DNA of 64,000 nucleotides from an uncultured Alphaproteobacteria bacterium (GTDB taxonomy: Bacteria > Pseudomonadota > Alphaproteobacteria > Rs-D84), in contig CALXMA010000004.1 in assembly GCA_944389345.1 (NCBI GenBank), forward strand, positions 14,374 to 78,373, read 5' to 3'. Shown here one piece after another: positions 16,091 through 48,773 of this stretch (position 1 is its first letter; every line of letters begins with the position of its first letter). Both the position numbers and the translations under genes were made by a program. The notes below the pieces were generated by a model. That model did not search any database, was not told the origin of the DNA, and worked only from the letters and a program-made list of their open reading frames with translations.

Positions 16091-16103
16091 TTAGTTAAAA
16101 AAT

Positions 16104-16111
16104 TGTATAAT
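16104..16111 (+). promoter_or_regulatory. Extended -10 element (TGTATAAT) upstream of the Cys-repeat operon
   Basis: TGTATAAT lies 27 bp upstream of the first ATG of the operon. The ribosome-binding site GGGAGAGGG is at 16127-16135. Confidence 0.4.
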
Positions 16112-16137
16112 GGTATCAACAGGCAAGGGAGAGGGTT

Positions 16138-16848
16138 ATGAAAAAAGCAGGCAAGGCACCTGTGAAAAAGACAGGTAAAAAAGTTCAAGATTGTCCGATT
16201 AATTGTTGCAGTACCGCGCATAAGGTGTGGAGTGCTGTTGCATTGGCGGGGTTGTTTGCGTGCGGTTTGATTTTGGGGTTGACGTATAATCAAACAGATG
16301 CGGTTCAGGCAAAGATGGATGCACAACAGTGTGATGCAATCGCAAATGAAATTGTTAATATAACAACAAACGGCGCAACACCAGAAAATATCGATACGCT
16401 GAATGAATTAAATCAGGCGTATTTGGACGGATGTGCGGGACGGTTGGTCGTTATTGAAAAGCCTGTGGTGAAATCAATTGCGTCGCGCCCAGAAATTGTT
16501 TCTACGTGCGACAGAATTGAACAATTGTTGCAAAAACGTCTGTACCCAGAAGATAACCCAGAATACTGGAAACATTTGGCAAACGCCGATACGTACAGTA
16601 CTTTGGCCGACAGGGGGTGTGCGGAAAATTCAGAAATGTATAAAACGTTGGCGTTGCGGGAATTGGATATTGCAACGGCGTTGAAACCAACGGAATCTAT
16701 GGGAACGCGTGATGCAGAAATTGTTATCGATACGTTCAAGAAATTAGATATGCAACAAGAAGCACGTGAATTCTTGGGCAAAGTAGAAAAACTGATAGAT
16801 CCGGCAACCGATTTTATCTTGCAAATGGAACAGATTATCAATGAATAA
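16138..16848 (+). CDS. Membrane-anchored extracytoplasmic protein with two Cys-bracketed repeat units (unrecognised family); gene A of a 4-gene operon
   Basis: 236 aa. It has a Lys-rich N-terminus (MKKAGKAPVKKTGKK) and one TM helix (WSAVALAGLFACGLILGL). Two repeat units follow: C-DAIANEIV...YLDGCAGR and CDRIEQLLQKRLYPEDNPEYWKHLANADTYSTLADRGCAEN. Gene D is a paralogue. Confidence 0.6.
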   Translation: MKKAGKAPVKKTGKKVQDCPINCCSTAHKVWSAVALAGLFACGLILGLTYNQTDAVQAKMDAQQCDAIANEIVNITTNGATPENIDTLNELNQAYLDGCAGRLVVIEKPVVKSIASRPEIVSTCDRIEQLLQKRLYPEDNPEYWKHLANADTYSTLADRGCAENSEMYKTLALRELDIATALKPTESMGTRDAEIVIDTFKKLDMQQEAREFLGKVEKLIDPATDFILQMEQIINE

Positions 16849-18975: not shown

Positions 18976-19062
18976 GGGCGTGCGCCGGAGTTGGAGAGCC
19001 GGGGCAGACTGTAAATCTGTTGGCTTAAGCCTGAGGTGGTTCGAATCCACCCACTCCCACCA
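18976..19062 (+). tRNA. tRNA-Tyr (anticodon GTA), class II with long variable arm; possibly slightly aberrant
   Basis: GGGCGTGCGCCGGAGTTGGAGAGCCGGGGCAGACTGTAAATCTGTTGGCTTAAGCCTGAGGTGGTTCGAATCCACCCACTCCCACCA. The anticodon loop is CTGTAAA and the long variable arm is typical of Tyr. The T-loop is the canonical TTCGAAT and CCA is encoded. Two oddities are C rather than U at position 8 and a C4:U69 mismatch in the acceptor stem. Confidence 0.65.
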
Positions 19063-19305
19063 AAACACAAACCGACCGAATGGTCGGTTTTTGTTTTGTG
19101 ATGGGGTGGTGAGATGAGAACCACTGGTTCGACAATGAGTAGATTTGACAAGCACCGCGCGGTCAAATCGTTAGGAATGCCCCACAGCCGGCGTGATAAC
19201 GCCGTGCGAGGGAATCCACCCACTCCCACCAAAACACAAACCGACCGAATGGTCGGTTTTTGTTTTGTGATGGAGTGGTGAGATGAGAGCCACTGGTTTG
19301 CAATA
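19043..19305 (+). repeat. Two copies (19043-19136 and 19212-19305; ~94 bp, 3-4 mismatches) of a segment comprising the tRNA-Tyr 3' end + rho-independent terminator + ~45 bp; period 169 bp
   Basis: GAATCCACCCACTCCCACCAAAACACAAACCGACCGAATGGTCGGTTTTTGTTTTGTGATGG(G/A)GTGGTGAGATGAGA(A/G)CCACTGGTT occurs twice. The terminator hairpin is CCGACC-gaat-GGTCGG followed by TTTTT. The second copy lacks the 5' part of the tRNA, so it is an att-like scar or a tandem duplication. Confidence 0.7.
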
Positions 19306-45951: not shown

Positions 45952-46857
45952 ATGAACGACATTATTATGCATGATGTTATTATTCTGGGGTCGGGACCGG
46001 CGGGACTGACCGCGGGGTTGTATTGTGCACGTGCAGGTAAAAAAACATTGATTCTGGGTGGCGACAGATTGGGCGGACAGACCGCGGGTATCGCCGTGCT
46101 GGAAAATTATCCTGGATGGGCGGGCAGTGGATTGGAATTGTCCGAATTTATGAAAAAACAGGCCGAATCATTCGGGGCCGAAATTATATTTGTGTCTGCA
46201 AAAAGTATCGATGGTGATGCGGAATCAGGTTTTAATATCTTGGCCGACGATGGCAACCACTATGTCGGGAAAACCGTTATTATCGCAACCGGCGCATCGC
46301 CACGTAAACTGGAAATCGAAGGTGCACGCGAATTATTCGGCAAGGGTGTATCATACTGTGCCACGTGTGACGGGTTCTTTTATTCCGAAAAAGACGTTAT
46401 CGTTATGGGGGGTGGCAATTCCGCATTGAATGATGCGCTGTACCTGGCGGATTTGGCACGCAGTGTAAAAATCGTATATCGCAAGGGTGCATTTACCCGG
46501 GCCGAAGCCGTATTGCGTAATCGTGTGTCAGAACGTGAAAATATTGAATGTTTGTTCAATACTGATTTGAAAAAAATTGCACAAACGGACAACGATCGTT
46601 TGGTTGTCACAACGACTGATGACCAAGAAATTATCTGTGATGGTCTGTTTGTTGCCATCGGGCACGAGGCTAATACCGATTATCTGTCCGAAGATATCCG
46701 TCGCGATAACATGGGGCGTTTAATTCCATCCGAATTGCCCACCGGTATGTTTGTCGCCGGCGACGTCGAATCAGAAATAAAAATGCAAATCGCCACGGCT
46801 GTCGGAACAGGGTGCAGTGCGGCTATGGACGCCATCGCATACCTAAATCAATTATAA
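45952..46857 (+). CDS. trxB: Thioredoxin-disulfide reductase
   Basis: The FAD motif is VIILGSGPAGLTAGLY, the redox-active site is CATCDGFF, and the NADPH motif is GGGNSA. Confidence 0.9.
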   Translation: MNDIIMHDVIILGSGPAGLTAGLYCARAGKKTLILGGDRLGGQTAGIAVLENYPGWAGSGLELSEFMKKQAESFGAEIIFVSAKSIDGDAESGFNILADDGNHYVGKTVIIATGASPRKLEIEGARELFGKGVSYCATCDGFFYSEKDVIVMGGGNSALNDALYLADLARSVKIVYRKGAFTRAEAVLRNRVSERENIECLFNTDLKKIAQTDNDRLVVTTTDDQEIICDGLFVAIGHEANTDYLSEDIRRDNMGRLIPSELPTGMFVAGDVESEIKMQIATAVGTGCSAAMDAIAYLNQL

Positions 46858-47370
46858 TCACGCATCTATACGCGGGGAAACGCCGGTCGTGTAGCGTTTT
46901 GTACACTCCCTTTGTTTTCCCGCGTATATCTGCATGATTCTAATTGATTTATCATTTGCTGAATAATCACGCATCCGTGCGTGGGGAAACGCCGGTCATG
47001 TAGCGTTTTGTACACTCCCTTTGTTTTCCCGCGTATATCTGCATGATTCTAATTGATTTATCATTTGCTGAATAATCACGCATCCGTGCGTGGGGAAACG
47101 CCGGTCGTGTAGCGTTTTGTACACTCCCTGCGTTTTGTCGTGCACATCTGCATGATTCTAATTGATTTGTCATTTGCTGAATAATCACGCATCCGTGCGT
47201 GGGGAAACGCCGGTCGTGTAGCGTTTTGTACACTCCCTGCGTTTTGTCGTGCACATCTGCATGATTCTAATTGATTTGTCATTTGCTGAATAATCACGCA
47301 TCCGTGCGTGGGGAAATGTCGGTCGTGTAGCGTTTTGTACATTCCCTGCGTTTTGTCGTGCACAGATGCA
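46856..47370. repeat. Tandem array of ~4.7 copies of a 109-bp unit (two sub-variants), palindrome-rich, in convergent intergenic region
   Basis: The unit is AATCACGCATCCGTGCGTGGGGAAACGCCGGTCGTGTAGCGTTTTGTACACTCCCTGCGTTTTGTCGTGCACATCTGCATGATTCTAATTGATTTGTCATTTGCTGAAT. Copies start at 46856, 46965, 47074, 47183 and 47292. Each unit contains CACGCA-tccg-TGCGTG and AAACGC...GCGTTT inverted repeats. Confidence 0.85.
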
Positions 47371-47375
47371 TATCA

Positions 47376-47409
47376 TAAAAAAATAGAACGGACATCCGTT
47401 CTATTTTTT
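47376..47409. terminator. Bidirectional rho-independent terminator
   Basis: A7 run, then stem ATAGAACGG (47383-47391) / CCGTTCTAT (47396-47404) with loop ACAT, then T5. It overlaps the stop codon of the J-domain gene. Confidence 0.8.
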
Positions 47410-47910
47410 ATTGAAATAATCTTTTAATGTGTTGTATGCGTCGGTAATTTTTGTAAATTTTTTTGTTGCCGTGGCTTTATCACCCGTTGTGGTGTCGGGG
47501 TGGTGGCGTTTGGCCAATGTACGATATTTCGCAGATATTTCACGCCATGAACTGGTAATTGGCAAATCCAGTGTTGCAAATGCATTAACCGCGTTGGTGG
47601 GCATTGATTTTTTCCGTGGTGGCGTTTTATCAAATGTTGTACGGCCCGTTATAAAATCATTCAAAAAATTTATGTAATCACGGTTGTCTTGTTCGGCCTG
47701 GGCCTTGTCCTTTAATGGGGCGCCAAATGTTTGACGTTCCCAATCTTCTTCTATTTCTTCGGGGCTCATACCCGCATAGAAGTTCCAATTTTTGTTATAT
47801 TCGGCCGCGTGTTCACGACAAAACCACCAGTATTCACGCAAATCGCGCGTTTTTGGCGCACGACATGTACCGGCGCGTGTGCAACCGGGATGATCGCATT
47901 TTTTTATCAT
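47401..47910 (-). CDS. J-domain protein with N-terminal Cys-rich zinc-ribbon-like region (DnaJ-like co-chaperone)
   Basis: The C-terminal J domain reads ...SWREISAKYRTLAKRHHPDTTTGDKATATKKFTKITDAYNTLKD (HPD motif). The N-terminus reads MIKKCDHPGCTRAGTCRAP...WFCREH. The start is moved to MIKKC so that it does not overlap xerD. The ORF track start lies inside xerD. Confidence 0.7.
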   Translation of the reverse strand: MIKKCDHPGCTRAGTCRAPKTRDLREYWWFCREHAAEYNKNWNFYAGMSPEEIEEDWERQTFGAPLKDKAQAEQDNRDYINFLNDFITGRTTFDKTPPRKKSMPTNAVNAFATLDLPITSSWREISAKYRTLAKRHHPDTTTGDKATATKKFTKITDAYNTLKDYFNKK

Positions 47911-48773
47911 TTTTGTTTGTTTCCTATGTGCCCCAGTGGATGGTGCATTTGTACGGTTTGTTTCAATTTGTCTGGTAACACGTGCGTGTATATTTGGGTC
48001 GTGGATATATCTTCGTGTCCCAGCATAGTTTGAATTGCGCGCAGGTTTGCGCCACCCGCCAACAGGTGTGATGCAAACGAATGGCGCAGGACGTGCGGAC
48101 TGACCCGATTGGGGTCCAGCCCCGCCAAAATCGCGCATTTTTTTAATATCTTGTAAAATCCATCGCGTGTTATATGACCCGATTTTCCCGACGATGGAAA
48201 CATATATTTAGAATCCGCAGGCGTGCGAATTTTTAACCATTTTTTCAGGGCGTCTTGGGCCGATGCGTGCATCGGAACGATTCGTTCTTTTGCGCCTTTG
48301 CCGTGGATTAATAATTTATCGCCCAGGTTTGCCGATACCGGTAATTCGCACAATTCTGATACGCGCAGACCAGATGCGTACAATAATTCTATCATTGTGC
48401 GCAGGCGTGTTGAATTTTGTGTGTCGCCCGCCGACGATACCAATAGTTCTATTTCTTGGACCGACAGAAATTTTGGTAATGGACGATTACGCTGGGGCAG
48501 TTCCAGATTCGCAGATGGGTTTTCATCTATGATTTTTTCCAGCATCAGAAATTTATAAAATCCGCGCAGTGCGCTGGCCTTGCGCGCGACAGATGATGGA
48601 CGTTCGTCCAGTTCGTCCAGGTATTTTTGTATGTCTGGGCCACTGGCACCCATTAGTCCGCCAGGAATCGAATCGTTTGCCAGGCGCAAATCAGATGCAT
48701 AACTGGATAATGTGCGTTGACTGCGACCACGTTCGGCAGACAGGGCCTCTAAAAACATATCTATGTAGTTCAT
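47907..48773 (-). CDS. xerD: Tyrosine recombinase XerD (XerC/XerD family)
   Basis: It has ...MFLEALSAERGRSQRTLSSYASDLR... The catalytic region reads ...HVLRHSFASHLLAGGANLRAIQTMLGHEDISTTQIYTHV (R, H-x-x-R, Y). The start is taken at MNYIDMF. Confidence 0.8.
   Translation of the reverse strand: MNYIDMFLEALSAERGRSQRTLSSYASDLRLANDSIPGGLMGASGPDIQKYLDELDERPSSVARKASALRGFYKFLMLEKIIDENPSANLELPQRNRPLPKFLSVQEIELLVSSAGDTQNSTRLRTMIELLYASGLRVSELCELPVSANLGDKLLIHGKGAKERIVPMHASAQDALKKWLKIRTPADSKYMFPSSGKSGHITRDGFYKILKKCAILAGLDPNRVSPHVLRHSFASHLLAGGANLRAIQTMLGHEDISTTQIYTHVLPDKLKQTVQMHHPLGHIGNKQK

Follow-up and report, generated by a model that had tools for sequence, protein, structure and literature searches.

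A long covarying hairpin at the 3′ end of trxB and its tandem amplification in uncultured alphaproteobacteria of Candidatus Enterousia

Integron attC sites are hairpins of about 60–140 nt that conserve their structure and a few unpaired bases but vary in the sequence of the stem. Host genes can receive codons from Rickettsia palindromic elements. The repetitive extragenic palindromes (REPs) and the bacterial interspersed mosaic elements (BIMEs), e.g., REP325 of Escherichia coli yjdMN, are palindromic units placed head to tail at the 3′ ends of genes, often in convergent gaps. They are transcribed as part of the 3′ untranslated region (UTR), where they act as terminators and as stabilisers of the mRNA, and they form hairpins when units are paired in inverted orientation. 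One account describes REPs as sequences of 20–40 nt, present in >100 copies per genome, set in alternating orientation in BIMEs, and associated with a REP-associated tyrosine transposase (RAYT) (PMC2817692). An array of REPs has been found to double as terminator and stabiliser in a 3′ UTR (bioRxiv 10.64898/2026.03.23.713779), and compensatory evolution is documented for the stems of terminators (PMC5381666). Here, we analyse a palindromic element at the 3′ end of trxB, the gene of the thioredoxin-disulfide reductase, in a stretch of 64,000 nt from an uncultured alphaproteobacterium (contig CALXMA010000004.1, positions 14,374 to 78,373). We call this whole stretch the window, and all coordinates are its own unless another contig is named. 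A preliminary description of the window, made from the letters alone, had noted a tandem array of palindrome-rich repeats behind trxB. It missed the age of the element: the first copy is old and conserved at the orthologous place across a genus-level clade.

A covarying hairpin behind trxB

Retrieval of related loci with TrxB placed the source organism in Candidatus Enterousia, a group of uncultured gut alphaproteobacteria of the order Rs-D84, whose genomes measure about 0.75–1.0 Mb (PMC12306168). The closest species representative has a TrxB 92% identical to that of the window. The comparison set comprised 562 kb of sequence from 70 related species (L numbers are our handles for related sequences), and we searched it with a covariance model (CM) of the hairpin built from 31 units. 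The hairpin lies directly 3′ of trxB, in constant orientation and in 1–3 copies, in about 30 of the 70 species, and all 68 matches of the model in this set are at that place, with scores on the + strand about twice those on the − strand. Unit 1, the copy that abuts trxB, is intact in every species that carries the element (90–118 bits). Where the dnaJ-like and xerD genes have been displaced, the hairpin remains beside trxB.

The gap behind trxB takes four forms. In 11 species, it measures 11–36 bp and holds only a short bidirectional terminator (A-tract, stem, T-tract), the element being absent. In 7 species, it measures 104–123 bp, and the normal terminator is replaced by exactly one long hairpin, followed by T-rich sequence and by no other terminator. 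The third form is a tandem array, with a period of 99, 102, 104, 105, 107, or 184 bp depending on the lineage (109 bp in the window). The fourth is larger and holds inserted genes for small cysteine-rich secreted proteins; no mobility gene was found in these enlarged gaps of the relatives. The accessory genes, one or two per gap and with a signal peptide, were seen at L012:2270–3170, L045:5500–6170, L063:3750–4400, L067:5327–6205, and L029/L030:5017–5583. The gap between trxB and dnaJ is an insertion hot spot for such genes, whether the hairpin is present or not.

On the TrxB tree, the element goes with the C-terminus YLN[QK]L-stop, and species that lack it end in YLNS[RK]x-stop. It occurs in five clades or more, with absences nested among them, having been lost in several lineages, and sister species can differ in copy number (3 vs 1). 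Two deep-branching species (L066 and L055, TrxB 73–77% identical) have unit 1 and a partial second unit, joined by the spacer TTTGCTGA-ATAAT, a junction identical to that in the window; the layout with 1.5–1.8 copies is therefore old. The larger arrays, with other periods and junctions, arose later as expansions specific to a lineage. In L066, the units are followed by a canonical terminator. Terminator and array coexist likewise in the window, L021, and L031, and the terminator is always distal to trxB, which would place the array within the trxB 3′ UTR.

Conservation statistics were computed on 28 units of the + strand, from about 27 species. In these units, 88.6% of the pair cells hold a standard pair, against 30–45% when the partners are slid. 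Both sides are altered in 25 of the 41 pairs, and the covariation score is 0.43 (0.07–0.13 in the slid controls). All these figures are somewhat inflated because the alignment was fitted to the CM. The slid controls and the raw folds of each species agree with this result. The pairing runs into the codons of trxB, where a change from Q to K (CAA to AAA) is matched by a change from G to T in the right foot of the hairpin. The bases that stay unpaired are nearly invariant (26–28 of 28 units): both TC/TC internal loops, the T.C mismatch of the foot, and a C and a G of the apical loop. The middle of the stem exists as a few unrelated sequence types, common to and shuffled among species and units. 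Strains that are ~99% identical to the window in trxB and the 2.9 kb upstream show up to 15 changes among the 112 positions of unit 1; all of them fall in the two arms and complement one another, which indicates the replacement of alleles or units, not point mutation.

The pairs comprise 959 Watson–Crick, 49 G.U, and 38 A.C combinations. A strand test on the last two classes gave no bias (49 vs 38), so that the functional strand is not assignable in this way. The missing wobble bias is compatible with a stem that folds in both convergent transcripts, and also with arms kept identical through template switching. The conserved mismatches are all pyrimidine–pyrimidine on the + strand. We favour an RNA in the sense of trxB, given the fixed orientation, the distal terminator, and the like orientation to a tRNA gene of the one copy found elsewhere.

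This copy is the single match of a clade-level apex pattern in the JGI metagenomes. It lies on a 1.35-kb metagenome contig (L081, Ga0123356_10516859) that has no trxB, where a family member of 125 nt (at 864–995) abuts the CCA end of a gene for tRNA-Thr(UGU). It is oriented to this upstream gene as the element is to trxB, with a convergent open reading frame (ORF) on the opposite side, and a BrnA-like neighbour (BrnA-type antitoxin) ties the contig to the same order. L082, L084, and L085 carry no such copy at their orthologous tRNA-Thr sites. With its filters off, the CM found the five array units and no further copy in the 64-kb window, none in the ~15 kb beyond its ends (window and flanks together amount to ~80 kb, about 9% of a genome), and none in 20 kb elsewhere in the closed genome L011; a handful of copies in the rest of a genome may exist. 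The weak matches in these last two stretches are unrelated terminator hairpins. The exact 22-nt apex pattern had no match in the GTDB representative genomes, the clade-level pattern had none in viral contigs, and blastn found none in plasmids and phages. A family-level gapped pattern matched once in the viral contigs, and we rejected this match as chance in AT-rich DNA (8–9 bits). In the window and nine related loci, only tRNAs pass the gathering threshold of Rfam, and at E values up to 10 the best sub-threshold matches over the array region coincide with the terminator and spare the units.

Long hairpins, of 45–105 nt, are found between further convergent genes of these genomes as well. One of about 105 nt lies between convergent fba and efp (L086–L089, ~16094–16242), and an 18-bp perfect stem follows a ybeY-lnt fusion gene (L092:17493–17577). 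Both gave weak matches to the model and were rejected as members of the family, their sequences being unrelated.

Structure and instability of the array

Each unit folds into a single imperfect hairpin of about 105 nt, with the arms of the first copy at 46844–46893 and 46902–46951 (Table 1). The preliminary description had resolved the unit into two strong inverted repeats and a weaker third one; folding gives one long hairpin with 50-nt arms instead. The motif AAACGC/GCGTTT is part of its long stem, and CACGCA-tccg-TGCGTG is a by-product of one variant of the left arm, absent from copy 1 (c1) and from other species. The array had also been placed directly after the stop codon of trxB. It does follow the gene, but the first hairpin overlaps the stop codon: it starts within trxB, 10 nt upstream of the array, and the last four codons and the stop (CTA AAT CAA TTA TAA, 46843–46857) make up its left foot. 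This foot is absent from the internal copies, and the right foot is absent from the last copy. A selenocysteine or other recoding signal, as used by eukaryotic thioredoxin reductases, was considered and rejected: the gene stops at TAA, no TGA lies in frame, and no conserved peptide follows the stop.

Table 1. Coordinates of the array, of the parts of its first hairpin, and of the genes that bound the gap (TRF, Tandem Repeats Finder; MFE, minimum free energy)
Feature	Position	Strand	Basis or remark
trxB, thioredoxin-disulfide reductase, 301 aa	45952-46857	+	Pfam Pyr_redox_2 1e-39; NCBIfam TRX_reduct 284 bits
Whole tandem array	46854-47371	+	TRF: period 109, 4.8 copies, 95% matches, 0 indels, score 854
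Array units	c1 46854-46962; c2 46963-47071; c3 47072-47180; c4 47181-47289; c5 47290-47371	+	Ungapped alignment
Inter-unit spacer TCATTTGCTGA	46952-46962; again 47061-47071, 47170-47180, 47279-47289	+	Read from the sequence
Unit-1 hairpin, conserved core	46844-46951	+	Inverted repeat with 50-nt arms; MFE -51.7 kcal/mol; CM 118 bits
Unit-1 foot, A/U-rich, TAAATCAATTA / TAATTGATTTA	46844-46854 / 46941-46951	+	Left half: last trxB codons
T.C mismatch (its T opens the stop codon TAA)	46855 / 46940	+	
Two short stems	46856-46860 / 46935-46939; 46862-46864 / 46931-46933	+	
Symmetric TC/TC internal loop	46865-66 / 46929-30	+	
Variable 16-bp mid-stem	46867-46882 / 46913-46928	+	
Second TC/TC loop	46887-88 / 46907-08	+	
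Apical stem GTGTA/TACAC	46889-93 / 46902-06	+	
Apical loop GCGTTTTG	46894-46901	+	
Bidirectional intrinsic terminator, A7-stem-T6 (AAAAAAATAGAACGGA-CA-TCCGTTCTATTTTTT)	47377-47410	both	Folds on both strands; inverted repeat
J-domain protein gene, 169 aa, convergent, other boundary of the gap	47401-47910	-	Pfam DnaJ; gene calls on sister contigs L001-L010

TRF confirmed the period of 109 bp and the tandem arrangement, and the array is by far the strongest repeat of the window. The reported division of the copies into c1–c2 and c3–c5 holds for the right arm (alignment columns 59–76); in the left arm (columns 14–20), c1 also stands apart from c2–c5. Copies c3 and c4 are identical in sequence, and c5 ends after 82 nt, with its right lower stem converted to CAGATG. 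From c1 to c5, the CM scores are 118, 69, 62, 64, and 36 bits. The spacer TCATTTGCTGA links the right foot of one unit to the ATAATCA that follows. We agree that the array is neither a CRISPR locus nor coding: the copies are contiguous and without unique spacers, and the 95-aa ORFs within them have no Pfam family and no homologue among 5.8 billion proteins and were not called as genes on the sister contigs. No promoter was called inside the units. As had been noticed, the array closes at a bidirectional terminator, which folds on both strands and stands between the array and the convergent J-domain gene.

Among contigs with identical TrxB, the number of copies ranges from 1.8 to 4.8, although the differences among L001–L010 could partly reflect collapse in short-read assembly, since c3 and c4 are identical and two of these scaffolds have N gaps in the array. 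Among species it ranges from 1 to 3, including a long-read closed genome. This genome (L011) is a circular long-read assembly that carries the array, and the arrays are thus not assembly artefacts. Runs of N fall exactly within the repeat array in L004, L008, and L012; the array breaks short-read metagenome assemblies, whose copy numbers are untrustworthy. The last unit shows a CATCTG/CAGATG polymorphism, a 4-nt inversion that perfects the stem, a footprint of the kind that template switching is described to leave (PMC8794818). In the natural strains L001, L002, and L003, some units are hybrids whose arms pair poorly. Downstream units are truncated or are half-units. With both copy number and unit composition varying among strains and species, the array behaves as the expansion-prone minisatellite that had been suggested.

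On the far side of the gap, the longest ORF of the J-domain gene (47401–48138, − strand, 245 aa) runs 230 nt into the xerD-like gene. The 169-aa version, as called on the sister contigs, overlaps xerD by 4 nt and likely has the true start. Elsewhere in the window, two identical copies of a palindromic, terminator-like sequence of 38 nt, CAAAACACAAACCGACCGAATGGTCGGTTTTTGTTTTG, lie 131 nt apart (19061–19098 and 19230–19267), just behind the tRNA-Tyr gene (18976–19062); a terminator seems to have been duplicated locally.

Explanations for the element

We favour, with middling confidence, an explanation in which unit 1 is a conserved hairpin of the trxB 3′ end that replaces the ordinary bidirectional terminator, and the extra units are by-products of the instability of palindromes. 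The first copy would be the functional one, ancient, fixed behind trxB, and with an A/U-rich basal stem that takes in the stop codon. We infer that, in the trxB transcript, it would act as an oversized intrinsic-terminator hairpin and/or as a barrier to 3′ exonucleases, as REP/BIME do in E. coli. The extra copies may arise when the conserved foot, CATCT, and apex segments take part in unequal crossing-over or in replication slippage. These processes would add, delete, and shuffle units in the manner of a minisatellite, and template switching between the arms may maintain the complementarity of the stem. The 3′ position, the hairpin, and the T-rich sequence that follows it in single-unit species would suit an intrinsic terminator. 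A palindromic unit between the trxB stop codon and the terminator, with a structure kept by covariation, also fits the earlier suggestion of a structured 3′-UTR element.

Several observations weigh against this explanation. A simple scan for the terminator consensus does not flag the units, and the U-tract behind the stem is broken (UUCUAAUUGAUUUA). The window species has a normal terminator, so that the hairpins are not needed for termination there. The excess of G.U over A.C that is usual for an RNA selected on one strand is missing, and the − strand usually folds slightly better, because the mismatches there become tandem G.A. The possible collapse of short-read arrays, mentioned above, touches the copy-number differences on which the instability of the extra units is argued. 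Finally, a plain terminator needs neither invariant TC/TC loops nor an invariant apical loop, and their invariance suggests recognition by a factor outside the favoured model.

Such recognition is the core of an alternative that we regard as rather unlikely: the hairpin would serve a trans-acting protein as a specific recognition module, in the form of RNA or of extruded single-stranded DNA (ssDNA), and termination would be secondary or absent. The factor that would read the TC/TC and apical loops could be a protein that binds RNA, a ribonuclease, or an enzyme that binds DNA hairpins, the stem between the loops having only to be a duplex of fixed length. This would account for unpaired bases that remain invariant while the neighbouring stem turns over completely, for the strictly conserved orientation, and for mismatches that persist though template switching should erase them (one has been erased in the truncated last unit). 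However, there is no linked partner gene, the neighbours being alike in species with and without the element, nor a match to an Rfam family, and the idea is compatible with the favoured 3′-end hairpin rather than exclusive of it. Taken to its furthest, in a form that we hold to be quite unlikely, unit 1 would be an undescribed structured RNA or ssDNA module read by a dedicated trans factor, with the two UC/UC loops and the apical loop as rulers around a 16-bp duplex whose sequence strains exchange rapidly. It would then be a processing substrate or a specificity-carrying recognition hairpin, and the tandem copies would be reserve "alleles" and not junk. Invariant loops are harder to reconcile with a neutral palindromic minisatellite that arose in situ by template switching at an old terminator, with nothing selected. 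Template switching can make and keep perfect stems without selection (PMC8794818), and the poorly paired hybrid units, the truncated or half downstream units, and the loss of the element in several lineages are as such a process would leave them. Yet unit 1 is intact in all element-bearing species, and its mismatched loops are invariant down to ~73% TrxB identity, the opposite of unselected homogenisation, which makes neutrality very unlikely in our judgement.

The element is scattered patchily over the TrxB tree and goes with an altered C-terminus (YLNQL-stop vs YLNSRG-stop). This could instead reflect a non-autonomous mobile palindromic element without host function, inherited and locally amplified, whose landing at the 3′ end of trxB supplied new last codons and a stop. 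It would resemble REP doublets forming hairpins (REPINs), miniature inverted-repeat transposable elements (MITEs), or the Rickettsia elements. The L081 member next to tRNA-Thr, with empty orthologous sites, points in this direction, as does the REPIN-like build of two inverted arms over about 100 nt (PMC3116915, PMC3337134). We nevertheless think it unlikely. The ~80 kb of the species and the 20 kb of the L011 genome hold no second copy. Target-site duplications are absent at trxB (…ATACC/TAAAT … ATTTA/TCATT…) and in L081 (…CACCA/AAAAT … ATTTT/ACACA…), no inserted segment carries a transposase, and there is no plasmid or phage match. One orthologous site filled in about 30 species, with invariant internals, is moreover not expected of a decaying selfish insertion. 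The dispersed copies that the preliminary description had considered as the mark of a MITE are thus not seen in the part of the genome searched (about 9%), and neither are target-site duplications.

A tyrosine recombinase gene of XerD type about 0.5 kb away raises the question of a dif-like or attC-like recombination site, and attC sites are likewise structure-conserved, sequence-variable hairpins with unpaired bases. We consider this extremely unlikely. The recombinase is an ordinary Xer protein (NF001399, 302 bits, above the cut-off), and integron-integrase models score far below their own cut-offs; the same gene adjoins trxB in element-free species, and where the two are separated, the element goes with trxB and not with xerD. 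Neither cassette genes nor a 28-bp dif-like core are present. The GC skew is positive across the window (0.0–0.3), with a dip only at 40–50 kb, where the genes are on the − strand. The lack of a sign change indicates that the array is not at a terminus or dif site, and the positive values throughout place the window inside one replichore. The proposal that the array binds XerD or a nucleoid protein is not supported either, as xerD and the J-domain gene adjoin trxB also in species without the element.

The element is a well-supported structured non-coding element (25 covarying pairs, no Rfam match) in uncultured, genome-reduced gut bacteria with scant functional annotation. It is also a natural example of a long palindrome that stays complementary while its sequence is replaced, and that then grows into a minisatellite. 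In Enterousia, the array could be used to mark strains, and should a protein read the invariant loops, the element would offer a handle on the recognition of RNA or DNA hairpins in this lineage.

Comparison with known systems

Compared with integron attC sites, the trxB locus has no integron integrase, cassettes, or R/L core boxes, and the apex is conserved here and variable in attC. With REPINs, MITEs, and Rickettsia palindromic elements, the element shares a non-coding palindrome of ~100 nt and one copy at a second type of site (L081). Like the Rickettsia elements, it supplies codons to its host gene, in this case the last ones of trxB and the stop, and as in a MITE the whole element is an inverted repeat. 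Those families, however, have many dispersed copies, whereas, in the sequence searched, none was detected here beyond the trxB locus other than that in L081, and flanking target-site duplications are lacking.

The likeness to bidirectional terminators is closer. The hairpin occupies the same gap as the A-tract/stem/T-tract of the relatives, it has an A/U-rich foot and a G+C-rich stem, and its Watson–Crick pairing without wobble bias is expected if both strands must fold. It differs in being five times the usual length, in its invariant internal and apical loops, in an interrupted U-tract, in its tandem amplification, and in its coexistence with a normal terminator in the window.

The preliminary description had also called the array REP/BIME-like. 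The palindromic unit and the convergent gap support this, as do the head-to-tail arrangement, the extragenic location at the 3′ end of a gene, and a copy number that varies among strains; dispersal, unit size, and alternating orientation do not. The trxB units measure 109 bp, each is a full hairpin of 105 nt, and all are in direct orientation. The element occupies a single orthologous locus in about 30 species and overlaps the stop codon, with no dispersed copies detected in the roughly 9% of a genome that was sampled, and at the level of the locus neither the neighbourhood nor the inserted segments hold a RAYT or other transposase-like gene. The element matches no curated RNA family and is not a member of the REP/BIME class, but it would work like a REP/BIME and like a bidirectional terminator.

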